From positions 6,081-70,080 of the forward strand of contig JBARNH010000036.1 in the NCBI GenBank assembly GCA_049802875.1: a stretch of DNA of 64,000 nucleotides. Direction: 5' to 3'. The first letter of the stretch is position 1, and every line of letters starts with the position of its first letter. Source of the DNA: Thermoplasmata archaeon (GTDB lineage: Archaea > Thermoplasmatota > Thermoplasmata > Lutacidiplasmatales > UBA184). This document shows, piece by piece, positions 4,107-52,141 of this stretch. The notes beneath the pieces are model-generated. The model saw nothing but the letters and a program-made list of their open reading frames with translations, had not been told where the DNA came from and searched no databases. A program made the position numbers and the translations under genes.

Positions 4107-4109
4107 GGA

Positions 4110-6505: not shown

Positions 6506-6508
6506 ACC

Positions 6509-15712: not shown

Positions 15713-16759
15713 ATGCAGATCCTGCGGAGCAAGGCTCCCCTTCGGATCAGTTTCGCGGGCGGAGGGACCGACGTTTCCCCCTACCCCGAGGAGCGCGGAG
15801 GTGCGGTCCTCAACTGCACCATCGACAAGTATGCCTACGTAACGCTCGAGGCCGAGGCGGGCCGACCGGGCGGAACCGCGGTGGAGTCCCTAGATTTCAA
15901 TCTGAAGGCCAACTACGAACGACCGTCCGACCTCTTCTATAACGGAGAGCTCGACCTGATCAAGGCGGCGTTGAAGGTCCTTCGACCCCCGGGTACCGAC
16001 CCGGCGACTCCCGAGTGGCTTCGCCTGTTCCTTCATTCCGACGCCCCACCGGGGACCGGCCTCGGGACCTCGTCGGCGATGACGGTTGCCCTGGTGGGAG
16101 CGTTCCAGCACTACCTGAAGGAGGCCTGGACCTCGTATGATATCGCGGAACTGGCCTATCGGATCGAGCGATCGGAACTCGGGATCAAAGGCGGGCGACA
16201 GGACCAATACTCGGCGGCCTTTGGCGGATTCAACTTCATCGAATTTTCGGGGACCCGCACCGTGGTCAACCCGCTCAAGATCCGGCCCGAGGTCGCGAAC
16301 GAGCTCGCCTATCGGTTGCTCCTCGTATACACCGGGGGCGGGCACTACTCTAACGAACTGATCGAGAGCCAGCAGCGGGGGTACACGGACAAGCGGGAAG
16401 TGACCGTCGAGGCGCTCGATGCGACCAAGCGCTTGGCCATCGAGATGAAGAACGAACTTCTCCGGGGCAACATCGACGAAATGGGCGACCTCCTCGACGC
16501 CGGCTGGCAACTCAAGAAGAAGTTCACGGACGGAATCTCGAATCCGCGCGTGGACGACATTTACGCGAAGGCTCGGGGCGCGGGGGCGCTGGGAGGAAAG
16601 CTAGTCGGCGCGGGCGGCGGGGGGTTCTTGCTTCTATTCTGCGACTTCGCGCGGCGTGCCCAGGTCGCCCGGGCTGTGCAGGACGCCGGCGGCCGCGTGA
16701 CCGACTTCTCGCTCGAGACGATGGGCTTGCAGACCTGGTCGGTCCGCGCCGCGAGATGA
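15713..16759 (+). CDS. GHMP-family sugar kinase (HddA/sugar-1-kinase-like)
   Basis: N-terminal RISFAGGGTD motif and GHMP ATP-binding motif PPGTGLGTSSAMTVALVGA. Confidence 0.8.
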   Translation: MQILRSKAPLRISFAGGGTDVSPYPEERGGAVLNCTIDKYAYVTLEAEAGRPGGTAVESLDFNLKANYERPSDLFYNGELDLIKAALKVLRPPGTDPATPEWLRLFLHSDAPPGTGLGTSSAMTVALVGAFQHYLKEAWTSYDIAELAYRIERSELGIKGGRQDQYSAAFGGFNFIEFSGTRTVVNPLKIRPEVANELAYRLLLVYTGGGHYSNELIESQQRGYTDKREVTVEALDATKRLAIEMKNELLRGNIDEMGDLLDAGWQLKKKFTDGISNPRVDDIYAKARGAGALGGKLVGAGGGGFLLLFCDFARRAQVARAVQDAGGRVTDFSLETMGLQTWSVRAAR

Positions 16760-16847
16760 GCTCGGCTCTGAACTCTCCGAAACGAACCGATAGCCGGGGC
16801 AAACTCCTTTAGTTCCGGTCCGTAGGTTCCTCTGAAGGGGCGTACGG

Positions 16848-17813
16848 TTGGGGACGGCGCGTCGGGCCAGGGCGAACGCCACACCTCGGTCGAGTGACGG
16901 AGGCACCCCCGGAACTCGACGGCCGATCCGGGGGGTCCTCACGCTCGCCGGGGAGGGCACCGGGATGCTTCCCTGGTCCCGCGGGCTTCGGAAGGAGTTC
17001 CTTCCCCTCTACGACCGGGGGATCAACGGCGTTCCGGTGTTGAAGCCGATCGCCCACCTTGTGCTCGAGTCGCTCATGGGAGCGGGGGTGTCCGACGTCA
17101 CTCTCGTAGTGCAGCCTCGGGACCTCTCGTTCGTCCAGGAATATTTCACCGTCGACCAGTCGTTCCTGGAGCGTCACGGCCACCATCCCGAACGGGTCGC
17201 CGAAACTCGGGACTTCTATGCCAAATTGCGCGCGCTGAGGGTCCGTTATGCCCTTCAGCCGCGTCCCATGGGATTCGGTGACGCCGTCCTCCGGGCAGAG
17301 CCGTACCTCGGGGGCGAGCCGTTCCTTCTCCAGGCGAGCGACGGGGTCGTCCTCGAGCAGCGCCGAGGGAGCCTCCCGCGAGCGATGGGAGAGGTCCTGC
17401 AGGGCGAGGGCCTCGATGCGGTGTTGCTCGTGCGCCGCGTGACCGATCCCCGGCGCTACGGAGTGGTCGAGGGCCGCTCGGACGGTCGCTACGGTTCGGT
17501 ACGGCGCCTAAAGGTGACTCGGATGGAGGAGAAGCCCAAGCGCCCGCAGTCTCACTGGGCAGCGACGGCGGTCTATGCGTTCTCACCTCGACTATTCGAA
17601 GCACTCCGCGCCGCCCGAAATCGTTCTCGGCTCAGGGCAGAGCTCGAGCTCACGTGGGGGGTCCAAGAACTCCTATCCTGCGGGGGCGCGGTTGTGGCAC
17701 TTGTCCTCGAACCCGGGACTCGCTGGCGGTCGGTCGGTTCGCCGGAGGGGTACCTCCGCGCGTTGAGAGCCACCCATGCTCGTGCTTTCGCGCGGTCATC
17801 CAAACTCGGCTGA
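16848..17813 (+). CDS. sugar-1-phosphate nucleotidyltransferase (NTP_transferase family)
   Basis: Glycine-rich LAGEGTGMLP...KEFLPL motif and GFGDAVL in the pyrophosphorylase core. The start is uncertain. Confidence 0.65.
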   Translation: MGTARRARANATPRSSDGGTPGTRRPIRGVLTLAGEGTGMLPWSRGLRKEFLPLYDRGINGVPVLKPIAHLVLESLMGAGVSDVTLVVQPRDLSFVQEYFTVDQSFLERHGHHPERVAETRDFYAKLRALRVRYALQPRPMGFGDAVLRAEPYLGGEPFLLQASDGVVLEQRRGSLPRAMGEVLQGEGLDAVLLVRRVTDPRRYGVVEGRSDGRYGSVRRLKVTRMEEKPKRPQSHWAATAVYAFSPRLFEALRAARNRSRLRAELELTWGVQELLSCGGAVVALVLEPGTRWRSVGSPEGYLRALRATHARAFARSSKLG

Positions 17814-21834: not shown

Positions 21835-23934
21835 GTGCTCATTCCTCCCGCGTTGGCGTTCGGAGAGCTCGTACTCCTGTTCCTGATCCCTCTCCCGCTC
21901 GGAGCCATCACCCTCCGCCTCGCGGAACGGTTCTTGGGACACGGGTTGGGCTTCTCACCTCTCGAACGCGTTTTGGTCGCTTTCTTCGCGGCGGGCACGA
22001 TCCTCTTCGTTTTCGCGGCCCTCCCGGTCGCGTGGTACGGTTGGGCCCTGATCTCGGCCGTCTTCGGGGCCGGGATGGCCGCCTTCGTGGTGATCACCCT
22101 ACGAGAGCGTGGCGCCGGCCTCCGTCCGATCCTCGCCTTCATGAAAGGCGTGCCGGGTCTCCTCCTCGTCGGGGGGACTCTCGGGCTCGTCGCTCTGGAA
22201 CTCCTCGCGACCTGGACAATCCCGTTCCCGAACACCTACGACGGAGCGTCGACCGCCGTCTGGGTGAACCTCCTTCTGGCGAATCATACGATGCCCTGGA
22301 CCCTGGCTCCCTACGCGAATTGGGGCGTCGCCTACCCTTTCGGAGCCGTCGTCTGGATGTCGATCCCCGTGGCACTGTTCGGGTGGCCGATCACCGGGGC
22401 CCCGGTGCTGCTCCCTCCGCTCTTCCTGGCCCTGACCGTCCCCTCGGCGTATGCCCTCGGGTCGCGAGTGGCCGCGGGCTCCCGACAAGCACCGGAGGGC
22501 GTCGGCCTCCTCTTCGCAGGGTTCTTCGGGCTCGTGACGGCGTGGCCCCGACTCTTCGTGGGCGGTTCGTATGACTTCATCTTCGTAACCCCCCTGTTTC
22601 TGATCTCCTTGGGCTGCCTCCCAGGTTTGCTCCGGGCGACCGGGCGGAACTGGAAAGACCTCGTCGGGGTCGGCGCGTTCGTGGGGGCGATGGTCTGCTT
22701 GGGGACCGCGGCTGCCGAGTTCCTCATCCTCGTCCTCGTGGCCTATCTTCTGATGTTCCGTCGGGAGGTGGCGACGACCCTCCGCTCGGGCTTCGCGCGA
22801 ATCGTCGGGGTCGCGCTGATCGGCTCGGCCTTCATGGTCCGGACTCTCGTCGCCCTCGCCCTATGGTACCCCTATCCCGGGCATGTGCTCACCGAGGCGG
22901 GCCAACCTCCGTATGCGACCCCGGTCTCCCCCTACCAGTTCGGGACTCGGTTAGTGACCGGTGAACTGGACCCGTTCGTCCTGTGGAAGGCGAAGCTGTC
23001 CCCGTTCCCGGCGGTCTCCATCGAGCTGCAACTGCTGTTGGCGGTCGGTATCGTACTTCTCCTGGTTCGCGCGTGGTCACCCCAGAGTCCGCTCCGAGGA
23101 TTAGTGAGCTCGCGCCTGACTCACCTCGTCGCCGCGGGGACGGCGACCGGGTTGCTACTGGTCGCCTTCCTCCTTGCCACTACCGTTCCGGGGTCTTCGA
23201 TTCAGGAGGAGGGGCTGCTCGCGTCCCTGGAAGAATCGTCGGAAATTCTGTTCCTATTTTTCTGCCTCATCGCGTTGGTCCCGCTGATCGCGGCGGTCGA
23301 GCTGCTGCGCACGGGCCGACGCGTCACGACGGGAGGAGTCGACCTCGAGGACCTTCCGTCGAAAGGTCCAACGGCGCCCACTCGGACCTCTTGGCATTAC
23401 TCTGCCCGGCGACCGTCGAGCGGGGTCACGACCGTGTTGGTGTTGGTGTTGCTCATCCCGCTGGGATCGGGCGCGTACACCTCCGTGGTCGACGGACCGG
23501 GGTACCTCCACGGTGCGGTGACGTTGACGGCCAGTGTGACCCCGAGCGATGCGGATGCGCTTCGCTGGGCCGGGGCGAACCTTCCCGGCTGCTCCCGGGT
23601 GTTGGTGGCGCCGGGCTCCGCAGCCGAGTTTCTCCCCGAATTCGCGCGAGTTTCTGTGGTCTATCCGATGCTGCCGGCCCCGGTGAACCTCTCCTATGCA
23701 CTCATTGTGGCCGGCCTCATCCTCGGCCAGTACAACTCGACCTTCCGGGCCGAACTCGTACAGCTCGAGGTCACCGAGGTGTTCGGGACCGGTATGAACT
23801 CGGCCTCGTACCTCCCCTTCGACCTTCAGCCGCTCGCCACATCGAGCGACTTCCATCTTCTGTTTCAGGAGGGCGACGCATCGATCTACGAGTTCCTCCC
23901 CGGTGCGACGGCGTCGGGCTGCGCCGTGGCCTGA
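21835..23934 (+). CDS. polytopic membrane protein (at least 12 TM) with about 200-aa extracytoplasmic C-terminal domain; possible GT-C-like glycosyltransferase
   Basis: 699 aa. Multiple TM helices span the first ~470 aa, followed by a soluble C-terminal domain. There is no WWDYG motif, so this is not a canonical AglB. Confidence 0.6.
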   Translation: MLIPPALAFGELVLLFLIPLPLGAITLRLAERFLGHGLGFSPLERVLVAFFAAGTILFVFAALPVAWYGWALISAVFGAGMAAFVVITLRERGAGLRPILAFMKGVPGLLLVGGTLGLVALELLATWTIPFPNTYDGASTAVWVNLLLANHTMPWTLAPYANWGVAYPFGAVVWMSIPVALFGWPITGAPVLLPPLFLALTVPSAYALGSRVAAGSRQAPEGVGLLFAGFFGLVTAWPRLFVGGSYDFIFVTPLFLISLGCLPGLLRATGRNWKDLVGVGAFVGAMVCLGTAAAEFLILVLVAYLLMFRREVATTLRSGFARIVGVALIGSAFMVRTLVALALWYPYPGHVLTEAGQPPYATPVSPYQFGTRLVTGELDPFVLWKAKLSPFPAVSIELQLLLAVGIVLLLVRAWSPQSPLRGLVSSRLTHLVAAGTATGLLLVAFLLATTVPGSSIQEEGLLASLEESSEILFLFFCLIALVPLIAAVELLRTGRRVTTGGVDLEDLPSKGPTAPTRTSWHYSARRPSSGVTTVLVLVLLIPLGSGAYTSVVDGPGYLHGAVTLTASVTPSDADALRWAGANLPGCSRVLVAPGSAAEFLPEFARVSVVYPMLPAPVNLSYALIVAGLILGQYNSTFRAELVQLEVTEVFGTGMNSASYLPFDLQPLATSSDFHLLFQEGDASIYEFLPGATASGCAVA

Positions 23935-25053: not shown

Positions 25054-25935
25054 CTAGTCCATCGTTTGCAGGCGCAATCGCTCCAGACCGTCTCGGACGG
25101 TGAGCATGGGGATGTTCGTCACCCGCTCGACCTTGGCCGAGGAGAGGTTGACGGAGGGAGGCCGGGGCGCGATCTGGTGGAGCTGTGGGGTGGTCACCGG
25201 GCTGATGAGCGACTCGTCCAGGCCGAAGGTCCGGGCGATTTCGAGCGAGAAATCGAATCGGCTGAGGCAGTCCTTTCCGGCGATGTGGAACATGCCGGTC
25301 GCCCCTTTCTCGTACAGACCGAGCAGCTGCTCGGCGAGATTGTCTGCCCACGTCGGGTTGCTCTTCTGGTCGTTGACAATCGTCACTCGCTCCCCCTTTC
25401 GCAGCTTATCGACCAACCAGAGGGCGAAGCTGACCTTGTTGAGTCCTCCGACGCCGTAGATCACCGCGGGCCGGGCGACCGCGAAGTTCAGGCCGAACGC
25501 GTCCAGCATCTGCTCGACGACCACCTTCGTCATCGCGAAGTAGCTCAGCGGGTGGGGCTTGTCCTTCTCGGTGTAGCGTAGCTTGCGTCCGTCGAAGACG
25601 TACTCGGTCGACAGGAACTCGTACTTGCAACTGAACTTTTTGCACGCCTCCGCCACGTTTCGGGCTCCATCGACGTTGTTCTTCCACGCGTCCTCGTGAT
25701 GCACCTCGCAATGGTCGACGTTGTTGAGCGAGTGCGTGTCGACCACGAGGTCGGGTTTCACGCGTTCGACCAGGCGGACGACCGCCTCCCGGTCGCCGGT
25801 GTCGATCCGATGGAGGTTCTTCCCTTTGAGCTCGTGCGACAGATACGTGCCGTGGACCTCGAAGCGGCCCTCGGCCAGCTTCGCGACGCGACTCCCGACC
25901 AGCCCGCTCTGCCCGATCACGAGGATACGATCCAT
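25054..25935 (-). CDS. rmlD: dTDP-4-dehydrorhamnose reductase
   Basis: 293 aa. The N-terminal MDRILVIGQSGLVGSRV Rossmann fold and overall architecture match RmlD. Confidence 0.82.
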   Translation of the reverse strand: MDRILVIGQSGLVGSRVAKLAEGRFEVHGTYLSHELKGKNLHRIDTGDREAVVRLVERVKPDLVVDTHSLNNVDHCEVHHEDAWKNNVDGARNVAEACKKFSCKYEFLSTEYVFDGRKLRYTEKDKPHPLSYFAMTKVVVEQMLDAFGLNFAVARPAVIYGVGGLNKVSFALWLVDKLRKGERVTIVNDQKSNPTWADNLAEQLLGLYEKGATGMFHIAGKDCLSRFDFSLEIARTFGLDESLISPVTTPQLHQIAPRPPSVNLSSAKVERVTNIPMLTVRDGLERLRLQTMD

Positions 25936-25938
25936 CGT

Positions 25939-26670
25939 CTAGCTCCCTCGGGCCCCTGACTTGCGGGCCGCATACAGGGTGGCTCTCTTGAAGCCATCCT
26001 CCGTCCCGGCGTCGGCCACGAAACGGTCCGTGAAAATGGGGTGGAGTCGGTCGTTTCGGATGTACCAGTTCATGACGTCGGCGATCTCCAGCTCCCGTCG
26101 CGCGCTCGGGGAGACGGAGCGAATTACTTGGAACACATCGGGGGGAAAGACGTACAGACCGACGACCATCTGGTCCGACCTCGGGTGGGCCGGATGGTCT
26201 TCGATCGCCCGTATTCTCCCGGAAGTGTCGAGCTCCGCGATCGCGACGTGCTGAGGGTCGGTCGCGGGAGCCACGAACACGTGCGCGTTGTCGTCTCCCA
26301 GAACCTCCGGAGAGAGCGTGACCGGTTCGAAGAGATCGTCCCCTAGGATCGCGACGACCTTGGACCCCCGGAAGAATGACTCGGTCTGGAGCAACGCATG
26401 GGCGACTCCCTTGGGGCCGTCCTGGCCGATCAGCGTGAGAGTCACGCCGTAGCGGCTCCCGTCGCCGAGCACCTGACGGAACGACTCGAGGTGCTCGGTG
26501 CCCGTCACAACGCCGACCTCTCGGATGCCTATCCCTTGGAGGGTCCCGATCGGGAAGGCGACCATCGGACGGTCGAAGACCGGCAGGAGGTGCTTGTTGA
26601 TTGCAAAGGTATACGGTCGAAGACGGGTGCCTGTGCCCCCCGCGAGGACGGCGCCTTTCTGAATCCCCAT
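25939..26670 (-). CDS. rmlA: glucose-1-phosphate thymidylyltransferase-like (short-form RmlA)
   Basis: GGTGTRLRPYTFAINKHLLPV nucleotidyltransferase motif. 243 aa. Confidence 0.82.
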   Translation of the reverse strand: MGIQKGAVLAGGTGTRLRPYTFAINKHLLPVFDRPMVAFPIGTLQGIGIREVGVVTGTEHLESFRQVLGDGSRYGVTLTLIGQDGPKGVAHALLQTESFFRGSKVVAILGDDLFEPVTLSPEVLGDDNAHVFVAPATDPQHVAIAELDTSGRIRAIEDHPAHPRSDQMVVGLYVFPPDVFQVIRSVSPSARRELEIADVMNWYIRNDRLHPIFTDRFVADAGTEDGFKRATLYAARKSGARGS

Positions 26671-26768
26671 GTGTACCCTGACAACATGGTCCCAAGGTTT
26701 ATACGTGACACTGTTTCAAGGTAAGACGTTCCGACCTCTCCTAGCGAGGAACAGGCGGAGAGAGAGGC

Positions 26769-27782
26769 ATGAAGGTCCTCGTCACCGGAGGCGCAGGGTA
26801 CATCGGTTCGATCCTGACGCCTCTGCTCGCCAAGGAAGGGTTCGATGTGACGGTCTACGATCGGTTCTTCTTCGGAAAGGGTGGTCTCGCTGGCCTGGAG
26901 GACCGCATCAAGCTCATTCGCGGCGACATCCGTTGGATCGACTCGTCGACCCTTCGAGGTATCGATGCGGTCATCGATCTGGCAGCCCTTTCGAACGACC
27001 CGATCGGCGAACTCGACCCGAAGCTCACGCTCCAGATCAATCACCAGGCTCGTGTCCGTATCGCGAGGCTGGCGAAACGGGCCGGGGCTCAGAGATACCT
27101 GTTGGCCTCGTCGTGCAGCGTCTACGGTTTCCAGAAGAAGACCGCGACCGAGGAGACCCCGGTCCACCCCCTCACGACGTATGCCAAAGCCAACGCGTTG
27201 TGGGAGCGGGACGCCCTTCCGTTGGCGAGTCGGAAGTTTACGGTCACCGCGCTACGACAGTCGTCCGTCTATGGCCTATCGAAGCGCATGCGCTTCGACA
27301 TCGCGTTCAACAACATGGTCCTGAGCGTGTTCCGGGGGAAACGCCTCCCGATCATGCGCGACGGGAAGCAGCGACGGCCGATCATCCACATTCGGGACAC
27401 TTCGCGCGCGTTCCTCTCGGTCCTCACCGCCGACCCGGACCTCGTCCGCGGGGAGGTCTTCAATTCCGGCTCGAACGACCAGAACTTCCGGATCTACGAC
27501 CTCGCAAAGACCGCCGCCGAGAGCGTTGGGGTCCCGTTCCGGTTCGAATGGTACGGGTCGCCGGATTTCCGAAGCTACGACGTGAACTTCGACAAGATCC
27601 GGCGGGTCCTGGGATTCAAGCCAAAGTACACCCCCCGCGACGGGGCGCGCGAGGTGTTCCGCGCCCTCAAGAGCGGAGCGCTCCAAGCCGACGACCGAAC
27701 GATCACGATCCGGTGGTACCAGCATCTACAGGAGCTTCTCGAGACCGTGCGGGAAGTCGAACTCCGGGGGAGGATCCTGTAA
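26769..27782 (+). CDS. NAD-dependent epimerase/dehydratase family protein (candidate sugar 4,6-dehydratase/4-epimerase)
   Basis: MKVLVTGGAGYIGS Rossmann motif and catalytic YGLSK. Confidence 0.8.
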   Translation: MKVLVTGGAGYIGSILTPLLAKEGFDVTVYDRFFFGKGGLAGLEDRIKLIRGDIRWIDSSTLRGIDAVIDLAALSNDPIGELDPKLTLQINHQARVRIARLAKRAGAQRYLLASSCSVYGFQKKTATEETPVHPLTTYAKANALWERDALPLASRKFTVTALRQSSVYGLSKRMRFDIAFNNMVLSVFRGKRLPIMRDGKQRRPIIHIRDTSRAFLSVLTADPDLVRGEVFNSGSNDQNFRIYDLAKTAAESVGVPFRFEWYGSPDFRSYDVNFDKIRRVLGFKPKYTPRDGAREVFRALKSGALQADDRTITIRWYQHLQELLETVREVELRGRIL

Positions 27783-27786
27783 CCCC

Positions 27787-28377
27787 ATGCCGTTCGTTTT
27801 CGAACCGCAGGAGATCCCCGCGGTGGTCCTGATCACTCCCCGGGCGTTCGCGGACTCCCGTGGGTACTTCGTCGAGACGTACAAACGCTCCGAGTTCCAG
27901 CGCGCCGGTATCCCTTCGGAATTCTACCAGGACAACTGCTCGGCTTCGAAGAAGGGCGTCGTGCGCGGCCTTCACTACCAGCTCGATCCGGCCGCCCAGG
28001 GGAAACTCCTGAGGGCGCTCTCCGGGTCCGTTTGGGAGGTGGCGGTAGATATCCGCAGGGGCTCCCCGACCTTCGGCCGGTGGACCGGCGCGGTTCTCTC
28101 GGCAGAAAATCGGAAGATGCTATGGATCCCTCCCGGGTTCGCCGCCGGGATGGTCTCGCTCGAGGACGACTCTCAGTTGGCCTACAAAACCACGGAAGAG
28201 TACTCTCAGCCGCACGAGCGAGGGATCCGCTGGAGCGACCCCACGATCAACATCCGCTGGCCGGTCGATGTCTCCTACGCGATCGTTTCCGATAAGGACC
28301 AGGCGCATCCTCTCCTCAAGGACGCCGAGATCAACTTCGTCTGCCGACCGCTGGACGGACCGTCGCATGATCGCTAA
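27787..28377 (+). CDS. rmlC: dTDP-4-dehydrorhamnose 3,5-epimerase
   Basis: The RmlC cupin motifs RGYFVETY, RGLHYQ and KLLRALSGSVWEVAVDIRRGSPTFGRW are present. Confidence 0.85.
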   Translation: MPFVFEPQEIPAVVLITPRAFADSRGYFVETYKRSEFQRAGIPSEFYQDNCSASKKGVVRGLHYQLDPAAQGKLLRALSGSVWEVAVDIRRGSPTFGRWTGAVLSAENRKMLWIPPGFAAGMVSLEDDSQLAYKTTEEYSQPHERGIRWSDPTINIRWPVDVSYAIVSDKDQAHPLLKDAEINFVCRPLDGPSHDR

Positions 28378-28903
28378 GCGGCGCCCGATCTACCGTAGCG
28401 ATCACCTCTCGGTCGAGGAGGCGGATATCCCACTTCCCCACGGCGGGAATATTCCGGGATTCCCGCTCGTCACCCATTCCAACGGAGTGATCGTAGCTCC
28501 GATCTTTGTTCAACGCGGTCGAAAGTACATCATGCTGCTCGAGCAGTGGCGGGCGGCGATGAACGTCACCGTCCTCGAAGTGCCGGGCGGGGGTCTCGCC
28601 CCCGGAGAAACTCCCCGAGACGCGGCTGTCCGAGAGGTTCGGGAGGAGGCCGGGCTCGACGTGGAGAAGCTCGTCGAGGTCGGCGAAGTCCTTCCCGCTC
28701 CGGGTTGGGAAGTGGAGACCCAATTTCACTTCCTCGCGATCTGTCATCCGCGTCTAAACGGTCTGCGGTTGGACCGAACCGAGAACATTCGATGCCGCCC
28801 GACCCCCGTCGGCGAAGTGCGTCGCTTGCTCCGGACACGAAAGATCCAGGACCTGAAAACTAAGGCGCTCCTGTACGACGCGCTCGAGTACCTCGGGGCT
28901 TAG
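28367..28903 (+). CDS. NUDIX hydrolase
   Basis: The ATG at 28367 overlaps the rmlC end by 11 nt. Nudix box GGLAPGETPRDAAVREVREEAGL. Confidence 0.75.
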   Translation: MIAKRRPIYRSDHLSVEEADIPLPHGGNIPGFPLVTHSNGVIVAPIFVQRGRKYIMLLEQWRAAMNVTVLEVPGGGLAPGETPRDAAVREVREEAGLDVEKLVEVGEVLPAPGWEVETQFHFLAICHPRLNGLRLDRTENIRCRPTPVGEVRRLLRTRKIQDLKTKALLYDALEYLGA

Positions 28904-30072
28904 GCCGCATCGCCTCGGTCCGAGAAGGATGCGGCCACTACTCCCGCCCTCGCCCCGTCCCCGACCGCGGGGGCGGAGGGTGCCCCGGGTTGGCTGGGAA
29001 GACAGGTCGAGGTCCCGAAGAGCGCACTGACATCCGTTTGCTCGGTGAAAACGCAGTAGCTCCACGGTCCCCCGGGTGCCTGCGATGGCCCGGTGCCCGT
29101 CGTCGCGGTCCAGCTCGACGTCGTGCCGGCCGCTACGGTATGCGTCGAGACCTGAACCAGGGTCGTACTGGGGAACGCGCCGCCGACCTGAATCATGTTG
29201 ATGACGGCATTACCGATCATCTGTTCGGTGCCTTCGATGAGCGGTAGGGAGAAATCCATCACGGAGCCAGCGCCGAACGGGAGAAGGGCGGCGTTCGTGA
29301 GCCCGCCGGCGACGTTCCCGTAGACCTGGCCTCCCGCGGCCGCCACCCCCGCGGTCGAAAGTCCGAATCCGGTCAGCGCGTACGTCAGGCTCGCGATGTT
29401 GAGGGCCAGAGACCCGTCGGTCGAATTCACGAGGGGCCCGACGGGTCCGTACGAGAGATTTCCGAGGAACCGGTGCACGCCGTCGGTACCGATGACGCTG
29501 CCCGCGCTCGAGAGGGGAGTATTGGCGCTCGCCGAGTAGTAACCGATCGCCGCGCCGATCCACGCGAGCCGCCCTCCATCGAGAAGCCATGGGGCGACGA
29601 GGTCGGAGGAGTTCGAGTAAACGGTCGACGGAAACGCTCCCGAGGCCACGACCAGGAGGCCCCCGGGAGCGGTCAGGGGATTCGAGAGGATCCTCTCCAG
29701 CTGGTCGGCGTCCACCACCACCACCGAGATCGGAAGTCCCCGCGCGGCGATCGCGAGCTGCAGGTAGTACTGCATCCCGGCCCAACTGATGATGTTCGAG
29801 AAGCTGAGGCCGTACGCGGCGTCATAGAAGTAGTAGATCGTACGGATCTCGCTCGAGGAATTGAGCCAGAAGCCGACCTGTTGGAACGTCCCGGAGTACG
29901 AGGTCGTTACTTGGGAGTTCACCTCGATCGAGCTTCCGGTCTCCTCAAGGCTGACCGAGAACGACACCGAATTGCGCAGGGGAGGAGCGTAGACCGCCAC
30001 CTCCGAAACGAGGATCGCGACGACGACCAGGGTGATCGCGTAGGCCATGAGGTCGCCGGCACGTCGATTCAT
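28900..30072 (-). CDS. N-terminally membrane-anchored extracytoplasmic protein (module A partner, unknown function)
   Basis: The start is the Met at 30072, forming an ATGA overlap with the upstream membrane-protein stop. A signal-anchor TM is followed by about 360 aa with at least 10 N-x-S/T sequons. Shared motifs: IYAPP, YFYDA, VVVDADQL, LVAPWLLDGGRLAWIG, IGYYS. The paralog lies at 52325..53410. Confidence 0.6.
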   Translation of the reverse strand: MNRRAGDLMAYAITLVVVAILVSEVAVYAPPLRNSVSFSVSLEETGSSIEVNSQVTTSYSGTFQQVGFWLNSSSEIRTIYYFYDAAYGLSFSNIISWAGMQYYLQLAIAARGLPISVVVVDADQLERILSNPLTAPGGLLVVASGAFPSTVYSNSSDLVAPWLLDGGRLAWIGAAIGYYSASANTPLSSAGSVIGTDGVHRFLGNLSYGPVGPLVNSTDGSLALNIASLTYALTGFGLSTAGVAAAGGQVYGNVAGGLTNAALLPFGAGSVMDFSLPLIEGTEQMIGNAVINMIQVGGAFPSTTLVQVSTHTVAAGTTSSWTATTGTGPSQAPGGPWSYCVFTEQTDVSALFGTSTCLPSQPGAPSAPAVGDGARAGVVAASFSDRGDAA

Positions 30073-31622
30073 CCCGCGGGCCCCCCGTCGGTCGGGGCGG
30101 GATCTGCCGGCGCCCTCAGCTTGAGAACCAAGAGCACGACCAGGCAGACGAAGGCAGTCGACACGGGAACGAACTCGAGCGGGAAGGTCACGTTCTGCAC
30201 CTGAACCCATGCATTGATTGACGAGAGATACAGCTGATAGGGCACGACGTGGAAGTCATACCACAGCGGCAGAAAATTGAGCAACGGCCCACCGAGAGTG
30301 AAGTAATAGAGGGCGGGGCCGACGGAGACCACGAGGAAGATCGCGAGGTACCTCCGGCCCTCGGGGACGAGCAGGATCAGGAACGGTAGGCACCAGATCA
30401 TGTACTGGGGCTGAACGACCTGAGGGATCAGGAACGCGCCGACCGACACGAGCGTCGCCCACGGGAGCCAACGGGCGGGCTGAGTCACCTCGCCGCGGGG
30501 CGCGCGCAAGAGGACTGCGGCAGCGATCACCGCGATGGCGACCGCGAGCCCTGCCCCGACGATCACGGTGGTCGTGCCGCCGAACGCGGAGATCCACTGA
30601 TCCGCCGAGTGGATGCCCGGGACCGAGAAGAATCCCCAAAAACCGAACCCCTGGTAGACCCCGCCGGCCCGGCTCGGACCGACCAGAGCGGACTGAACAA
30701 ATTCTGACAGTAGACCCGGGACCGCGACGACTGCGACCACCGGCACGGCGACCCCGCCGATCACGCCTCCCGCAGCCCACAGACTCTTCCCCGTAGGTGC
30801 CTGCTTCCAGGAGATCGCACCCAACATCGGGACGAAGAGAAAGGGGAACACACCGATCAGCGCGCCCACCGCGATCGCGAGACCGGAGAAGAAAGGGCGG
30901 CGGTCGAACGCGAGAACGAACGCGGCCAGCACGCAGAAGGTCGGGAGGACGTCGTACGACCCGTGGACGGAACTGAGGAGGATAACGAGCGGGTTCAGGA
31001 ACCATGCCGCGAACGCCCAAACGGCCGTGGCCGGCTTACCGGTCGTTCGTAGCGCTAGGTGGTAGATCACGAATCCGGCCGCTACGTCGAACACCACCAG
31101 CGAGAGTTTCTCCACCCAAACGTAGGTCAGGTTCAGCTCGTAGGTCGGGGCGAGCGCGCTCGAGACCATGAATAGCCCTTGGAGTTGCGAGTTGGTGGTG
31201 AACCACGCGGTCGGAGGTGTGAACACCGAGGTGACTCGACCGACGACGTTGAGATAGAAGATCATGAAGGGAGGGTAGACGGTGGGATGGGAGTAGGGGC
31301 CCTGACCGTACACCATCGCCGCCGAAGTTTGCGCGAATGTGACGAGGTCCGTGTTCAACGAGATGGGGATCAGGACCAATCGAATCGCGACGCCGATCAA
31401 AAGGACCGGCAGGACGCTTCGTACCGTGCGAGGAATGCGTAGGTAGAACTGGCTAAACCGGTCTCGGAGGGAGCGCAGGCGAGGTGCGCTGCTCAATTCG
31501 CTACGACCCTCCCCGGGGCGAGGTACCAACCCCCCATAAGGGCGACCGTCGATTCCCCTAGCGGGCGAGGTTTGCGAGCTCCGGGGAGCTTCGCGCCCGG
31601 GTGGCCCAAAGACTCCCGGCAA
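30069..31622 (-). CDS. polytopic membrane protein, GT-C-fold-like (module A; possibly DUF2029/GT87-like)
   Basis: About 12 TM helices. Conserved YGQGPY...YPP loop after TM1. The paralog lies at 53407..54870. The start is uncertain because the ORF overlaps the upstream FkbM gene by 64 nt. Confidence 0.6.
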   Translation of the reverse strand: MPGVFGPPGREAPRSSQTSPARGIDGRPYGGLVPRPGEGRSELSSAPRLRSLRDRFSQFYLRIPRTVRSVLPVLLIGVAIRLVLIPISLNTDLVTFAQTSAAMVYGQGPYSHPTVYPPFMIFYLNVVGRVTSVFTPPTAWFTTNSQLQGLFMVSSALAPTYELNLTYVWVEKLSLVVFDVAAGFVIYHLALRTTGKPATAVWAFAAWFLNPLVILLSSVHGSYDVLPTFCVLAAFVLAFDRRPFFSGLAIAVGALIGVFPFLFVPMLGAISWKQAPTGKSLWAAGGVIGGVAVPVVAVVAVPGLLSEFVQSALVGPSRAGGVYQGFGFWGFFSVPGIHSADQWISAFGGTTTVIVGAGLAVAIAVIAAAVLLRAPRGEVTQPARWLPWATLVSVGAFLIPQVVQPQYMIWCLPFLILLVPEGRRYLAIFLVVSVGPALYYFTLGGPLLNFLPLWYDFHVVPYQLYLSSINAWVQVQNVTFPLEFVPVSTAFVCLVVLLVLKLRAPADPAPTDGGPAG

Positions 31623-32652
31623 GCATCCGGTCGCCGAAGAGGGAGAACGGATTCCGAAAGAGTCGGGGCCGCGTGTAGTCCACGAGGAATCCGTCGGCCC
31701 GAAGCCGGCGGACCAGCACCGAGCAGCCGTAGTGGTATTCGATCGTCATTTGTCCAAATCGCCGACGGGTCGCTTCGCTCGCCCCGAGGAGGAGGGGGTA
31801 CTCGTACCCCTCGCAATTCGATTTCAACACCGCGTCGTGGAGGTCGAAGCGGTCGACGATGGTCGACAACGAAGACACCGGGATCCGTTCGGCTCCCTCC
31901 GAATCGACGAGGTTGTTCCAGAGGGTGCCTCCGCTCTCTGCGCCCAAGGTCACCGAGCCGTCTTCGGCGCTGCACCCCTCGTTCAGCAGGGTGATCCGGT
32001 CGCGGAACCGCGAGCGCTCCACATTCCTCTGCGCCAGACGGAAGGTCGAGGGGAACGGCTCGAAAGCGTACACATGCCGGGCGCCGCGCGCCGCAAAAAA
32101 TAGCGCGGAATCGCCGATGTTAGCCCCCACGTCGACGACGTCTCGCTGCCGCACATCGACCGAGGAATACAAACCGGGACCGGCGCCCCCGGCAGCGATA
32201 AAGTGGACCCAAAGGGAGTCGACGCAGTTGACCCATTGCGAATCCGAATCGTACCAGAGCCTCACATCGGGAGCGTCACCGCCGTCCCTGCCGGAAACGC
32301 CCGGGAATGCGGCCGGGTCGAGGCGCATGCCGACATACCCCTCCCCTTGCACGATCGGAGCGGAGCGACGGTAGTTGTCGAACCGAGCCCGCCACAGGCG
32401 GGGATCATCCATCAGGAAGCGAGCCAAGGCTTGAGAGTCCACTGCCGCGGAGGAGCCATCCGAGAGTTTCAATGTCGCCGAACCCCCGACGCCGAGCCGG
32501 AGGGGCAGCAGGGCAGGCCAGTTTCGGATCGCCCGCCGCAATTCGCGAAGGTACCGCACCCGCTCCGGAGTCGGGATGACCAGTAGTCCGGTGGCGACCA
32601 GTTCCTGCCACCTCGTCGGATGCGGAATCCAGGTCGCGGGATTCTGGGCCAA
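31558..32652 (-). CDS. FkbM-family SAM-dependent methyltransferase
   Basis: VDVGANIGDSALFFAARGARHVYAFEP motif. Confidence 0.8.
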   Translation of the reverse strand: MAQNPATWIPHPTRWQELVATGLLVIPTPERVRYLRELRRAIRNWPALLPLRLGVGGSATLKLSDGSSAAVDSQALARFLMDDPRLWRARFDNYRRSAPIVQGEGYVGMRLDPAAFPGVSGRDGGDAPDVRLWYDSDSQWVNCVDSLWVHFIAAGGAGPGLYSSVDVRQRDVVDVGANIGDSALFFAARGARHVYAFEPFPSTFRLAQRNVERSRFRDRITLLNEGCSAEDGSVTLGAESGGTLWNNLVDSEGAERIPVSSLSTIVDRFDLHDAVLKSNCEGYEYPLLLGASEATRRRFGQMTIEYHYGCSVLVRRLRADGFLVDYTRPRLFRNPFSLFGDRMLAGSLWATRARSSPELANLAR

Positions 32653-35353: not shown

Positions 35354-36325
35354 CTATTGCTCGTTTTCTCCGGCGACGCCGGCCGAGGACCCGGCCAGCT
35401 GGTCCGCGCCGGGAAACGCGAATCGGTCCACGTGGAGTGGCTGACGCGGCGCGCGCGCCAGGTGACGATCCAAAAGCAGCTCCCGGAGGAAGACGAAAGC
35501 GGTGGTGACAAACGCAAGCCCCGGCACGATCTTGGAGTCGCCGTGACGGCGCTCCTCGAATCGGTACGGGATTTCACAGGTCCGAAGTTTCCCGTTCGTG
35601 GCGAGCAGGAACGGGACCAGTTCGAAGCCGAGATGTCCTTCACGATTGTGTTTCACTACCTCGAGGTCGATTCCGACGAACCCGGAGAGGGGGTCGCTCA
35701 GGTGTTTAGTCCGCGGAAGGAGAGCGTGGGTGAGCCAAGCGGCCCCCCTCGAGATGATGCTCCGGACGAGCTTTCGGTCGGTGGTCGAACCGCCGGCCGT
35801 GTATCGACTGGCGACGACCATGTCGTACCCCTGGCGCAACTTCGCATAGATCTCCGGGATCGCGCTCGGCGGGTGCTGGAGATCCGAGTCCATGACAATC
35901 GCATACCGAACCCGGGTCCAGCGGAGGCCCTGGAGCCTCGCATTGAGTAGTCCGTTGCTCGCTCGATTGAGGACCGGAAGCACGCCCGGGTGACCGGACT
36001 CCCAGGATTCGATCTGATCGATGGTCCCATCCGTGCTTCCATCGTCCACGATCACGACCTCGTGGGGGAAGTCGCACCCACGTTCGATCTCCTGCAGCAG
36101 GCGAGGCAGGTTGGTCGCCTCGTTCAACGTCGCGAGCACGATACAGGCCTCCGTGCGGCTGACCGGAGCCTGCGGAGCGACCCGGCTAGAAAAGAGACCC
36201 AAATCTCCGTGATACCCGACTCCGTGCGGGAACGACGGCGCGACCATCTCACCCACCGCGCTCATACTAACTCCCACCCCCTCGGAGATCCCCGGCTCGC
36301 CGCCTGCATAATTCGGTGACATCAA
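35354..36325 (-). CDS. dolichyl-phosphate hexosyltransferase (Dpm1-like GT2)
   Basis: The Dpm1-family motifs IVLATLNEATNLP, VIVDDGSTDGT, VMDSDLQHPP and ASRY are present. The N-terminal start is uncertain. Confidence 0.8.
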   Translation of the reverse strand: MMSPNYAGGEPGISEGVGVSMSAVGEMVAPSFPHGVGYHGDLGLFSSRVAPQAPVSRTEACIVLATLNEATNLPRLLQEIERGCDFPHEVVIVDDGSTDGTIDQIESWESGHPGVLPVLNRASNGLLNARLQGLRWTRVRYAIVMDSDLQHPPSAIPEIYAKLRQGYDMVVASRYTAGGSTTDRKLVRSIISRGAAWLTHALLPRTKHLSDPLSGFVGIDLEVVKHNREGHLGFELVPFLLATNGKLRTCEIPYRFEERRHGDSKIVPGLAFVTTAFVFLRELLLDRHLARAPRQPLHVDRFAFPGADQLAGSSAGVAGENEQ

Positions 36326-45386: not shown

Positions 45387-47462
45387 TCAGACTGCACCGG
45401 GCGGAGGCCCGCCGGCGCTCGGAGGGGGCGGTGACGAATCCCCCGGACCCTCCGACCAAGGGGAGCCGGGATTGCTGGCGGGCGGCGCGGGCGGTGTCAT
45501 CGCCGCGGGGGTCGGAACGGCCTCAACCCCTCCCTTTCGTCGCCGAGACACTAGGATGCCCACCATCAAGCCCACGATCCCCGCCACGATGATAAGGAGC
45601 AGTTCCTCGACCGTGCTCAGCGGCGACGAGCTCCCGGACGTGCTGGTGCCACCCTTCGTCGCGGGAGGGACCGCGAAGAATCCGATCCCTACGTTCTCGC
45701 CTCCCCCATGGACCGCTACCGAACCCTGCGTCGGGGTGTCGTTGTATCCACCCACGGCCGCGACGACGTAGGAGAACGTCCCGTTCGGCTCGGTGAACGT
45801 GATCGTGCCGTTGTTTGGACTGGAATGGGCGACGCCTCCAAGGGTCACCGACCACGCGGAGGTCCCGGGCAGTCCGCTCGAGGTGAACGTCACGGTGTAG
45901 GTGACTTCGGTCATCGTCAAGTTTACGGTGAGGTTTCCGTCATCGACTGACGCGACCCCCGACGCGGGGGTGACGGTGTATCCGGGGATGGCGGGGACGG
46001 TCCAAGAATAACTTCCGTTCTCGCGGTCCACCTCGACGCTCGTTCCGGTGCTCGCGTACGGCGTCGAGCCCACGAGGACCGACCAGGCGGTCGTGCCCGG
46101 GAGACCTTTCGCCTGGAACGAGATCCGATAGGTCGACGGGATGAACTCCAGGACGCGGTTGTTCCCGGTGTCGGCCACCCAGAGCGCGCCGTTCGGCCCC
46201 ACGAAGGCACCGAACGGTCCGGCGATCGCCGTGGCGTTGTCGCCAGATACATCGGCGGTCAGATTCGTCTGTCCGACGACCACCGACGCGTTCTCGAACG
46301 TGGAGAACGGCGGGAGGAATTCGACCACGCGGTTCCCCGCAAAGTCGGAGACCCACAGGTTCCCGCGCGGATCGACGGAGACGCTGACCGCAATGCCGAA
46401 CGCGCCCGCTCCCGTGGCGGTGTTGCCGGTGAACGAGGACTGGCCGAGAAGGTGGGTCGCCCCTTCCCCCGTCGAGAACGGAGCATCAAATCCGAGGACG
46501 CGATCGTTACCGGAGTCCGCGACCCACAGAATACCCCCGGAATAGTCGATGCCTTGGGGGTCGGAGAGGTTCGATGCGGAGAGCCCATATCGGCTCGTCG
46601 TAAAGTTGGATTGGCCTAGCACCAGGGAGGCGTTCATTCCGTTGGAGAACGGAGGGACGAATTCGACCACGCGGTCGTTTTCCGCGTCCACGACCCAGAG
46701 GTCACCGTGCGAGTCGAGGGTCAGGCCCACCGGGCGCGAGAGATTCTGTGCCGAAGTTCCCGACTGGTCACCGTTGAAGGTGCTCTGCCCCAACACTAGC
46801 AACGCCGCCTGGCCGTCAGTAAAGGGGGGTACAAACTCCAGGACGCGGCTGTTGTCGAAATCCGACACCCAAAGATCGCCGTGAGAGTCGAAGGTACAGG
46901 CGGCCGGAAGTCGCGTGCCCGTGGCGGTCGCATTGGGGCCTTTCGCCGTGAAGTTCGGCTGGCCAAGGACGATCGACGCCGCCTCCCCCGTGGAGAATGG
47001 CGGGGTGAACTCGGTGATCCGGTTGTCGCCCAGGCTCGGTACCCAGAGGTTGCCCCGAGAGTCGTTGCACGGGAATTCCACGTCGGGCCCGAAGGAGGTG
47101 GCATTGGCGCTCCCCGTCTGGTCGGTGGCGTTCCAGACCGTCCCATTCCATCGAGTCGTCAGATTGTTTGCACCCAGCGCGATGCTCGCGGCCATGTGGG
47201 TATAGAACGGGTTGGGAGGAGGTGAGGGGAGGGGAGCGATCGGGAGATGGAGTGCGGCAGGAGCCGCCACCGGCGGGTCTGCGGCGGCCAACGAGGGGCC
47301 GAGGGAACTGAGGAGCAGAGCGAGTACGCCGAACACGGTCCCGTACGTCATCAGCCGCGACATGGACGAATAACTTCGAACTTCTCCCTTATAATGCATC
47401 CGACGTGATTTCGGTGCCCTCGGCGCCGGTTCTCTGGGGTCGGGGGGATTTCCGGGACTCAT
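45387..47462 (-). CDS. secreted NHL-repeat beta-propeller protein with two C-terminal 'GLPxGTxWSV' domains, TM anchor and Pro-rich tail
   Basis: Signal peptide MTYGTVFGVLALLLSSLGPSLAAA. Six blades of the form LWV.D..N.RV.EF.PPFS.G..A..VLGQ.NFT. These are followed by two YTVTFTSSGLPGTSAWSV...NG.Y repeats, a TM helix and a Pro-rich C-terminus. Very many N-x-S/T sequons. Confidence 0.82.
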   Translation of the reverse strand: MSPGNPPDPREPAPRAPKSRRMHYKGEVRSYSSMSRLMTYGTVFGVLALLLSSLGPSLAAADPPVAAPAALHLPIAPLPSPPPNPFYTHMAASIALGANNLTTRWNGTVWNATDQTGSANATSFGPDVEFPCNDSRGNLWVPSLGDNRITEFTPPFSTGEAASIVLGQPNFTAKGPNATATGTRLPAACTFDSHGDLWVSDFDNSRVLEFVPPFTDGQAALLVLGQSTFNGDQSGTSAQNLSRPVGLTLDSHGDLWVVDAENDRVVEFVPPFSNGMNASLVLGQSNFTTSRYGLSASNLSDPQGIDYSGGILWVADSGNDRVLGFDAPFSTGEGATHLLGQSSFTGNTATGAGAFGIAVSVSVDPRGNLWVSDFAGNRVVEFLPPFSTFENASVVVGQTNLTADVSGDNATAIAGPFGAFVGPNGALWVADTGNNRVLEFIPSTYRISFQAKGLPGTTAWSVLVGSTPYASTGTSVEVDRENGSYSWTVPAIPGYTVTPASGVASVDDGNLTVNLTMTEVTYTVTFTSSGLPGTSAWSVTLGGVAHSSPNNGTITFTEPNGTFSYVVAAVGGYNDTPTQGSVAVHGGGENVGIGFFAVPPATKGGTSTSGSSSPLSTVEELLLIIVAGIVGLMVGILVSRRRKGGVEAVPTPAAMTPPAPPASNPGSPWSEGPGDSSPPPPSAGGPPPGAV

Positions 47463-51256: not shown

Positions 51257-52141
51257 CTATTTCCACTCGGCCAGGGCGACGATGTCCTCTAGAAGAGCCA
51301 CCGGAGGTTCGGACCCGAACGACCCTGTGTCGAAGAAGCGGTAGAACCCCTGGCGAGGGGTCTCCGGTCGGAACGCGATGTGCCACGCGGCGGCGAGACC
51401 GAGAGGGGTCAGCGAGAGTTCCGGGGGAAACGGCTCGGACCAATCCAGTTTCACTGAACTTCCGAGATTGCCCAGACCGAGCGATCCCACCCGCTTACCC
51501 GTCATCTTCCAACGGGCGATGACCAACCCGTTCCAAGCTTCGGGGTGCAACGTCACCTGCGCGGTCGCCAAGGGGGTGAACGCCAGACCTTGGTCGCTCC
51601 ACTCGGGCGGGGGGGGCACCGACTTGCGTCCGGAGGACCGGGAGGTGGCGCCGATTTCGACCGCCACGGGTCGCTGGCTGTACCAGGAGGATTTCAATCC
51701 CTCACCGGGGCCGGCCACCCAGGTCACGCGACTGCTCGAGTCCGAGAATAGCGGCTGGACCCCCAAGTTCGCGTGGTGGGCCCCGTACATCCAGATCTGT
51801 TCGTGGGGTCGCCCCCGTCCGACGCTTTTGCTCCAGAACGGGATGTCTCCGATCCAGACGATCCGGCCCCCGGCGTCCAGGTATTCCCGAACGGGATTGT
51901 TGGCCGAAGCGTCCGGACAGAGTTCAAACGGGACGAGATCCTGGGAGAAGGCCAGTACGGAACGAGTCGCAGTGGAACCCTTCTTCCGGTCGAGGAGCCA
52001 CCCCGCGAGTCCCGAGGCGTCGACCCTTTCGTATTCGCGATCAGCGAGGTACCGGGTGATCCCCTTCCCCCAGGTCTCCTTGTCGATCCAGGATGAATCG
52101 TGCTCCTCGTCGAAGTATACGGCACGGTATGCCTCCGCCAT
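51257..52141 (-). CDS. hypothetical cytosolic protein sharing a domain with the extracytoplasmic module partners
   Basis: It has no signal peptide. VREYLDAGGRIVWIGDIPFWS and SVLAFSQDLVPFEL align to LVAPWLLDGGRLAWIG / LLAPWIRAGGTLVWFADTIGYYS in the 28900 and 52325 proteins. Confidence 0.5.
   Translation of the reverse strand: MAEAYRAVYFDEEHDSSWIDKETWGKGITRYLADREYERVDASGLAGWLLDRKKGSTATRSVLAFSQDLVPFELCPDASANNPVREYLDAGGRIVWIGDIPFWSKSVGRGRPHEQIWMYGAHHANLGVQPLFSDSSSRVTWVAGPGEGLKSSWYSQRPVAVEIGATSRSSGRKSVPPPPEWSDQGLAFTPLATAQVTLHPEAWNGLVIARWKMTGKRVGSLGLGNLGSSVKLDWSEPFPPELSLTPLGLAAAWHIAFRPETPRQGFYRFFDTGSFGSEPPVALLEDIVALAEWK

Follow-up and report, generated by a model that had tools for sequence, protein, structure and literature searches.

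Duplicated gene pairs in a Thermoplasmata archaeon: candidate two-subunit extracytoplasmic glycosyltransferases with a GT87/PIG-M-like membrane protein and a single-pass partner

Glycosyltransferases of the GT-C fold build outer glycans in each of the three domains of life, and there is growing evidence that such enzymes rarely act alone. The catalytic subunit Gpi14 (PIG-M) of the glycosylphosphatidylinositol (GPI) mannosyltransferase I needs the single-pass subunit Pbn1 (PIG-X), and the two form a 1:1 heterodimer, in which the Pbn1 helix packs on the transmembrane (TM) helices TM8/TM12 and the loops on the lumenal side are in contact with a beta-sheet lobe (PMC12653191). A preprint predicted that nearly all mycobacterial GT-C enzymes rely on protein partners (bioRxiv 10.64898/2026.07.15.738315), and a GIFT domain with proposed sugar binding is present in the Wbp1/OST48 subunit of the eukaryotic oligosaccharyltransferase (PMC7226087). 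The present analysis concerns two gene pairs, copy A and copy B, located in a stretch of 64,000 nt with a G+C content of 65% (hereafter the window) from contig JBARNH010000036.1 of a Thermoplasmata archaeon (assembly GCA_049802875.1). We consider it reasonably probable that each pair encodes a two-subunit extracytoplasmic glycosyltransferase composed of a GT-C catalytic subunit and a non-catalytic partner. Since the GPI mannosyltransferase I itself works with the single-pass PIG-X/Pbn1, systems in which a GT-C enzyme has its own single-pass subunit are of a kind already known; new are the partner family and its distribution, either split from or fused to the enzyme, over archaea and bacteria.

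Two paralogous gene pairs of the same layout had been described in an earlier note made from the sequence alone, and the four open reading frames (ORFs), all on the minus strand, were recovered as follows:

28900..30072, minus strand: copy A partner subunit, 390 aa, predicted to consist of a signal-anchor helix, a beta-sandwich, a glutamine-amidotransferase-like (GH42 domain-B/ThuA-like) core, a C-terminal beta-sandwich and a disordered Pro/Ala/Gly tail
30069..31496, minus strand: copy A putative catalytic subunit, a polytopic membrane glycosyltransferase of the GT-C fold, GT87/PIG-M-like, 475 aa (Pfam, profile and fold matches)
30069..30072, minus strand: ATGA stop/start overlap of the copy A genes, read directly; the same 4-nt overlap in nine of ten other loci
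52325..53410, minus strand: copy B partner subunit, 361 aa, N-anchored, of the same domain family as partner A (paralogy with the latter; homologues P0005-P0015), with 9 sequons
53407..54870, minus strand: copy B putative catalytic subunit, a GT87/PIG-M-like GT-C membrane glycosyltransferase, 487 aa (Pfam GT87, paralogy with copy A, first-loop Asp and family motifs)
53407..53410, minus strand: ATGA stop/start overlap of the copy B genes, read directly

The membrane proteins of the two copies shared 29% identity over 440 aligned aa (E 2e-39) and the partners 31% over 369 aa (E 3e-46). Both overlaps could be read from the sequence as the note had claimed, with the ATG at 30072-30070 and the TGA at 30071-30069 in copy A, and at 53410-53408 and 53409-53407, respectively, in copy B. 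The motifs quoted there were likewise found in both copies: YGQGPY...YPP in the membrane protein and (V/I)YAPP, Y(F/Y)YDA(A/S)Y, V(V/T)(V/L)DA(D/N)QL, APW..GG.L.W and IGYYS in the partner. No third full copy of either gene was present in the whole window according to tblastn and hidden Markov model (HMM) scans, and the database records annotate the exact proteins as hypothetical (Thermoplasmata archaeon metagenome-assembled genome, MAG). One gene boundary had to be revised. The ORF of the membrane protein A reaches back to a TTG at 31622 (517 aa) and had been delimited accordingly as 30069..31622, but this start is probably too far upstream: because a 90%-identical homologue in a JGI contig (locus L001) begins at the codon equivalent to the window position 31496, the latter is probably the true start, which results in a protein of 475 aa.

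The two proteins represent one genetic and evolutionary unit. In all ten other distinct loci examined (L001, L002-4, L005, L006, L007/8, L009, L011, L012 and L013, plus fusion loci) the partner gene was located immediately downstream of a gene for a membrane protein of 407-512 aa, with the partner identity going down to 20-25%; most of these membrane proteins had GT87 or PIG-U matches and all of them aligned as a single family. The junction was a 4-nt overlap, either ATGA or GTGA, in nine of the ten loci and an 11-nt overlap in one. The loci included a Nitrososphaerales MAG, which provided the single locus in a scan of the GTDB species genomes, and a contig carrying F-ATPase epsilon and miaA genes of the bacterial type. 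The partner/GT-C family is not confined to archaea, its taxonomic range being drawn from few named records and from gene context. Furthermore, natural fusions made up 31 (about 20%) of the 161 retrieved proteins, i.e., the listed matches of the exhaustive profile search given below plus earlier matches. The fusions were 805-1129 aa long, with 7-15 hydrophobic segments followed by a partner domain, which in most cases began at approximately residue 480-680, and the GT87/PIG-U identity of the N-terminal half was confirmed by Pfam in the four fusions tested. One of them is NCBI MGH9170393.1, annotated as 'GT87 family protein [Acidimicrobiales bacterium]' (MAG). The anchor helix of the partner is the last transmembrane helix in the fusions, which places the C-terminus of the enzyme inside and the partner domain outside.

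Normalised alignment scores of the membrane and partner proteins correlated over ten pairs with a Pearson coefficient of 0.95 (0.92 without the closest pair) and a Spearman coefficient of 0.83. Both genes of each copy had the same nearest kin, for example L009 for copy A and L005 for copy B, and hence the pair was duplicated or acquired as a unit. An AlphaFold2 (AF2) model of the concatenated membrane protein A and partner A, 865 residues in total, calculated from an alignment of the window pairs, natural fusions and stand-alone partners, had a mean predicted local distance difference test score (pLDDT) of 89.5 and a predicted template-modelling score (pTM) of 0.89, which would be hard to reach without a defined mutual arrangement of the two halves. 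The conserved overlap, the natural fusions and the matched divergence agree with the co-expression that the earlier note had read from the overlap, and the survey of genomic context proposed there as a check showed the partners to co-occur and to be co-conserved in ten out of ten other loci, while no AglS/AglB-type accessory pair, named there as an example of a characterised system, matched them.

With the membrane protein, the known GT87/PIG-M-like family gains a new member. Pfam GT87 (PF09594, formerly DUF2029) scored 28.7 bits with copy A and 31.9 bits with copy B at a gathering cut-off of 25 bits, which was also passed by several homologues and fusions, and copy A in addition matched PIG-U with 30.2 bits (cut-off 24.5 bits). 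A 10-member family profile compared with the PDB sequences found the GPI mannosyltransferase I chains 23gx_B (E 1.3e-17) and 9wno_A (E 1.4e-15, 278 positions). Three blocks were colinear between the family and PIG-M: 'D..F......G..PY....YPP' against 'DIDYFVF...GKSPY...YTP', 'K..L..FD..TG.......W.LNP.VI..S..G' against 'KVIFVIFDLVTG...WLLNPMVITIS.RG', and 'QPQY.LW.LPF' against 'SQYFVW...LPF'. The first-loop Asp50 (numbering of the 475-aa protein), directly after TM1, stands in this alignment opposite the DxD motif of PIG-M, which is needed for activity (PMC12653191). It was kept in nine out of nine aligned sequences covering the region and was invariant in 35 aligned pairs and fusions; copy B also possesses this Asp and the remaining family motifs. 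The best PDB match of the AF2 model (pLDDT 89.5) was Gpi14 (9wno_A, TM-score 0.68 on the target), followed by PIG-U, ALG6, PimE (9dm5), ArnT and ALG3 (Foldseek probability 1.00), and all of these except the non-catalytic PIG-U are lipid-phosphate-sugar-dependent GT-C transferases. The former tentative assignment to a GT-C protein of the GT87/DUF2029 type is therefore supported, with the Pfam GT87 score above the cut-off in both copies and the fold matching Gpi14, PIG-U, ALG6 and PimE. On the basis of the profile matches and the predicted fold, we conclude that the membrane protein most likely belongs to the PIG-M/GT87 clade as a GT-C transferase of the active type. Since Pfam PF05007 was seen only as a 'faint' precomputed match on a single homologue, it is apparently a relative of PIG-M rather than its orthologue. 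The characterised catalytic relatives use dolichyl- or polyprenyl-phosphate-mannose (glucose in the case of ALG6), and a polyprenyl-phosphate-linked sugar would be the donor here as well, judging from this homology and from a nearby ArnC/AglJ-like GT2 gene.

The exhaustive HMMER search with a four-sequence profile of the partner against 1.84 billion cluster representatives retrieved 452 representatives of metagenomic origin at E<=1e-3, 49 of which reached E<=1e-30. Nearly all members of the clusters looked up were unnamed or annotated as 'hypothetical', the only informative labels being 'GT87 family protein [Acidimicrobiales bacterium]' and 'Gpi18-like mannosyltransferase'. Neither partner A, partner B nor six homologues had a Pfam or NCBIfam match at E<=1, and the partner profile gave nothing meaningful with the PDB sequences. 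No name, family model or paper for the partner family was found in the libraries searched, with the literature side limited to an incomplete open-access collection, in agreement with its earlier description as uncharacterised; the same collection, incomplete as it is and thus weak evidence of novelty, contained nothing specific on archaeal homologues of PIG-M that have a partner or on this accessory family. A homologue of partner B with 57% identity, P0009, carried the precomputed label PF27344.1, which was absent from the Pfam copy used; its rescan gave no match. A newer Pfam release, holding PF27344, may already have a model for the partner family.

The AF2 model of the partner, based on an alignment of 102 stand-alone members, had a pLDDT of 90.7 and a pTM of 0.85, and showed, in this order, a helix at the N-terminus (residues 5-28), a beta-sandwich, a core of the alpha/beta type, another beta-sandwich and a disordered tail. 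The core is predicted to have the class I glutamine-amidotransferase (GATase)-like fold, i.e., flavodoxin-like alpha/beta as in GATase1, ThuA and the domain B of GH42, and its structural neighbours were non-catalytic domains of GH42, GH164 and GH112 enzymes together with ThuA-like proteins. Out of the two parts of the earlier guess, a GATase1-like or DUF4350-like fold, the former is consistent with the model, while the latter failed at the sequence level: DUF4350 (PF14258) was not matched at E<=1 by the partners A and B or by the six homologues. Moreover, a metagenomic fusion of 1129 aa, P0056, consists of three parts, a GT-C membrane domain, a partner domain (481-783) and a separate DUF4350 (888-1059), and the occurrence of both as separate regions in one protein means that the partner domain is not DUF4350. 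Another protein, P0077 (1118 aa), is similar in length to P0056.

No invariant or near-invariant Cys or His, such as would be needed for a Cys-His-Glu triad, was found across the 102 partner sequences, and the position of the GATase 'nucleophile elbow' varied between Asp, Ala, Gly and Ser; because of these two properties, binding or scaffolding appears more likely than catalysis for the partner. The invariant or near-invariant positions were P148, G166, G167, G269, D84, L125, G145, W162, W171, G173, G177, G252 and G267. An N-terminal anchor was present in 91 of the 102 stand-alone members. Instead of the ten or more N-glycosylation sequons (N-X-S/T) previously counted for each partner, there were 4 in partner A (2.8 expected from composition) and 9 in partner B (3.2 expected), with a median of 7 in the 45 closest homologues against 3 in the more distant members. 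Both the anchor and the sequon counts would fit an extracytoplasmic partner in N-glycosylating hosts.

The genes surrounding copy A and a possible additional partner-like gene beside copy B are as follows:

25054..25935, minus strand: RmlD (Pfam RmlD_sub_bind)
25939..26670, minus strand: RmlA-type protein (Pfam NTP_transferase)
26769..27782, plus strand: RmlB-type protein (Pfam Epimerase/GDP_Man_Dehyd)
27787..28377, plus strand: RmlC (Pfam dTDP_sugar_isom)
31558..32652, minus strand: FkbM-family methyltransferase directly upstream of copy A, with a gap of 61 nt (Pfam Methyltransf_21, NCBIfam fkbM_fam)
35354..36325, minus strand: GT2 glycosyltransferase, candidate polyprenyl-phosphate-sugar synthase (Pfam Glycos_transf_2; weak NCBIfam similarity)
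51257..52141, minus strand: anchorless ORF of 294 aa, 183 nt downstream of partner B (partner HMM E 1e-7 among the window ORFs, profile positions 82-175)

The neighbourhood of copy A thus comprises RmlA/B/C/D, a NUDIX gene, a GDP-mannose 4,6-dehydratase, three GT2 genes and the FkbM methyltransferase, the latter probably in one transcription unit with copy A. Both copies had been placed in an island of glycosyltransferases, which stands for copy A and does not hold for copy B. The GT2 protein at 35354..36325 had NCBIfam similarity below the cut-off to ArnC (E 1.4e-14), PgfS, AglJ, a dolichyl-phosphate hexose transferase and PpgS, and would be the supplier of the lipid-linked donor. GT2/GT4, nucleotide-sugar genes and sugar methyltransferases adjoin the pair in 11 of 12 loci; in particular, the dTDP-rhamnose genes also flank it in L001-L004 and L012, and genes of the sugar O-methyltransferase type adjoin it in L006, L010, L012 and L013. 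The recurrence of the rhamnose and FkbM/TylF-type methyltransferase neighbours in loci only distantly related (25054..28377 in the window, 2981..5427 in L002, 946..3523 in L012, 9041..9883 in L006, 8633..9637 in L010 and 6171..6872 in L013) hints at a target glycan containing a (methylated) deoxyhexose. As stated in the earlier note, no AglB-type oligosaccharyltransferase is visible in the window: the motif W[WF]D[YWFN]G did not occur in any of the six frames, nor was there an STT3 Pfam match among the window ORFs scanned. Other GPI-pathway genes were not seen in the window ORF scans, and no peptidase, PIG-T-like or PIG-K-like gene was found beside the pair in the 12 loci. The anchorless ORF at 51257..52141 carries the partner core motif YxD ... 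GGxxxWxGD (hhalign probability 34%), and no TM segment, sequon, Pfam or NCBIfam match was detected in it; it is possibly a soluble paralogue of the partner domain, with uncertain membership in the module.

Among the described systems, the PIG-M/PIG-X (Gpi14/Pbn1) heterodimer appears to be the best analogy for the pair. PIG-M/Gpi14 (GT50) is a homologue of the putative catalytic subunit in both sequence and fold and, as is predicted for the pair here, forms a 1:1 pair with a single-pass protein having a large domain away from the cytoplasm, whereas the partner had no detectable relation to PIG-X/Pbn1 among the matches listed. The polyprenol-phosphate-mannose-dependent mannosyltransferases of GT87/DUF2029, such as PimE and its relatives, share PF09594 above the cut-off with both copies, and PimE also the fold, but the scores of the pair are marginal (about 29-32 bits). 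Phosphatidylinositol mannosides, the acceptors of the characterised GT87 members, are not known in archaea. In one preprint (bioRxiv 10.64898/2026.07.15.738315), the GT87-type examples PimE and MptB are paired with other proteins, and none of these resembles the partner ectodomain. The resemblance of the partner to Wbp1/OST48 and other GIFT-domain proteins (GldG, IFT52) is at the level of the broad fold class only; no OST48/Wbp1 chain was present among its listed structural matches, and PIG-T was likewise without detectable relation among them. Furthermore, the anchor is C-terminal in Wbp1 and N-terminal in the partner, and the catalytic companion of OST48 is STT3/AglB, of which the window shows no signature. 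The three-component systems of the GtrA/GtrB/GtrC type, consisting of a GT2 synthase, a flippase and a GT-C enzyme, are similar in having a GT-C enzyme acting outside the membrane and a GT2 gene, which here is located near copy A and in most of the loci; no dedicated ectodomain subunit of the partner family is described for such systems (PMC11127046, PMC8035078), and a GtrA-like flippase was not identified here. No tested partner member matched any member of the Pfam glutaminase-I-type clan, which includes DUF4350, ThuA and Glyco_hydro_42M, by sequence at E<=1. Finally, the pair is unlike the GPI transamidase scaffold PIG-U in having no PIG-K- or PIG-T-like neighbour and in keeping the catalytic-type Asp.

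In the proposed two-subunit enzyme, a cytoplasmic GT2 would load the sugar onto dolichyl phosphate, and the lipid-linked sugar would flip to the outer face of the membrane. There, the GT-C subunit of approximately 480 aa would take the sugar from polyprenyl(dolichyl)-phosphate-hexose, most likely Dol-P-mannose, and transfer it to a growing surface glycan, the presumed catalytic residue being the invariant Asp where the first outer loop begins. The partner, translated off the same mRNA by stop/start coupling and presumably in step with the enzyme, would insert its N-terminal helix beside the last transmembrane helix of the enzyme, so that its ectodomain, glutamine-amidotransferase-like with beta-sandwiches, might cover the outer loops of the latter and stabilise it and/or bind and position the acceptor glycan. 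The two paralogous modules may serve two linkages or acceptors. We infer in this scheme the formation of the complex, the identities of the sugar and of the acceptor, and the non-catalytic role of the partner.

Several points weigh against this scheme. The two-subunit enzyme is a prediction from sequences, gene order and structural models. The segment that sets the first-loop Asp opposite the PIG-M DxD scores low in HMMER (0.4 bits), and this placement is backed mainly by colinearity and invariance; the Pfam scores barely exceed the cut-offs, and PIG-U, which is also matched, is non-catalytic. Any two genes with a shared inheritance would be expected to diverge in a correlated way, and the concatenated model represents a covalently linked chain with natural fusions in its alignment, the interface between its halves being putative. 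The conserved D84 and the two Trp of the partner could act in catalysis rather than in binding. The recurrent dTDP-rhamnose and methyltransferase neighbours could signal another sugar chemistry, the donor identity resting on analogy, and copy B has no glycosyltransferase genes beside it, its neighbours being genes for a methyltransferase, TBP and a beta-helix protein.

If the partner were instead an enzyme, such as a glycan hydrolase, transglycosylase, deacetylase or amidotransferase-like protein that trims or modifies the product of the GT-C subunit, its core fold, shared with class I glutamine amidotransferases and related hydrolases, and the near invariance of Asp84, Trp162 and Trp171 over 102 members would be accounted for, and the anchorless paralogue with the same motif beside copy B would suggest an autonomous function. 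We nevertheless regard this as unlikely in view of the lacking Cys-His-Glu triad and the variable elbow position, of nearest structural neighbours that are non-catalytic domains, and of the dominance of Gly, Pro and Trp among the conserved residues, as is usual for structural or binding roles. The module might also be a processive polymerase, in which the GT-C subunit would lengthen a chain of the mannan or rhamnan type and the ectodomain of the partner would act as a channel or a ruler for the chain length or product release, as proposed for the MptB and MptA complexes of mycobacteria. Processive mannosyltransferases do exist among the GT87-type enzymes, periplasmic partners forming a product channel were predicted for MptB-LpqW-ML2271 and MptA-LmeA (bioRxiv 10.64898/2026.07.15.738315), the partner ectodomain is large and three-domain, and the window contains the Rml genes and an ABC-2 transporter in neighbourhoods of the polysaccharide type. 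However, GPI-MT-I as the closest solved relative adds a single mannose (PMC12653191), the ABC transporter is about 27 kb distant and the sequence does not separate processive from non-processive action, so that a processive function seems improbable to us.

A role of the membrane protein as a non-catalytic PIG-U-like scaffold, with the pair participating in a protein-anchoring or transamidase-like machine, would be in line with the PIG-U score of copy A, slightly above that of GT87, with PIG-U as the second-best structural match and with the two-subunit architecture that PIGU-PIGT shares with Gpi14-Pbn1 (PMC12653191). It is made very improbable by the first-loop Asp and further polar residues, whose invariance would be expected in an active GT-C enzyme, by catalytic PIG-M being the strongest sequence match, and by the absence of protease or transamidase genes beside the pair in any locus, where it is adjoined by genes for sugar activation and for glycosyltransferases. 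Overlaps of four bases occur frequently in the compact operons of prokaryotes, and the two genes could in principle be chance overlapping neighbours with unrelated functions; yet, the adjacency was kept at every locus examined in archaea and bacteria, about a fifth of the retrieved family members are translational fusions and the whole pair was duplicated as a unit. Natural fusions effectively refute the chance explanation, to which we give next to no credence.

The partner family, which numbers 452 or more sequence clusters, is linked to a single GT-C clade by three signals independent of one another, namely conserved translational coupling, repeated fusion and duplication as a unit. Under the preferred assignment to a two-subunit glycosyltransferase, the pair would be a concrete candidate for the source of acceptor choice or enzyme stability in the archaeal and bacterial PIG-M/GT87-like enzymes and a prokaryotic comparison for the eukaryotic PIG-M/PIG-X, and the confident model of the partner can guide experiments. 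The described cultured Thermoplasmata have no cell wall and possess mannose-rich lipoglycans and glycoproteins; in this group, the pair draws attention to genes with a possible influence on the form of the cell surface. A more far-reaching idea, which we consider speculative and rather unlikely as a whole, is that eukaryotes did not invent the obligate two-subunit GT-C mannosyltransferases of the PIG-M type and that these are widespread in fused and split form in archaea and bacteria, with the ectodomain as a new glycan-recognition module setting the acceptor specificity and the two copies of this genome corresponding to two specificities, and that PIG-M/PIG-X and PIG-U/PIG-T descend from such a prokaryotic heterodimer or replaced its subunit.

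Several other genes of the window deserve mention. The glycan cluster includes, beside a GT2 gene, an ORF at 21835..23934 (plus strand) for a protein of 699 aa with approximately 14-16 hydrophobic segments and no Pfam, NCBIfam or PDB sequence match, which is kept at the same position in the related contig L001; its product may act as a polymerase or a flippase, or may be a further membrane glycosyltransferase not recognised as such. Two adjacent genes at 57267..59864 and 60047..62659 (both plus strand) encode N-anchored proteins of approximately 870 aa with 20 sequons each and essentially no family assignment, and a gene at 45387..47462 (minus strand) encodes an NHL-repeat protein of 691 aa, also with 20 sequons; judging by these counts, the three products are likely heavily N-glycosylated surface proteins. 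A GHMP-family kinase gene followed by a nucleotidyltransferase gene at 15713..17813 (plus strand) represents a sugar-1-phosphate activation pair upstream of a 1002-aa secreted protein with a PGS-family Ig-like domain. An operon-like run of 2-oxoacid dehydrogenase genes at 1957..7951 (plus strand), in the order E1 alpha, E1 beta, E2, a second E1-type and E3, is unrelated to the gene pair.

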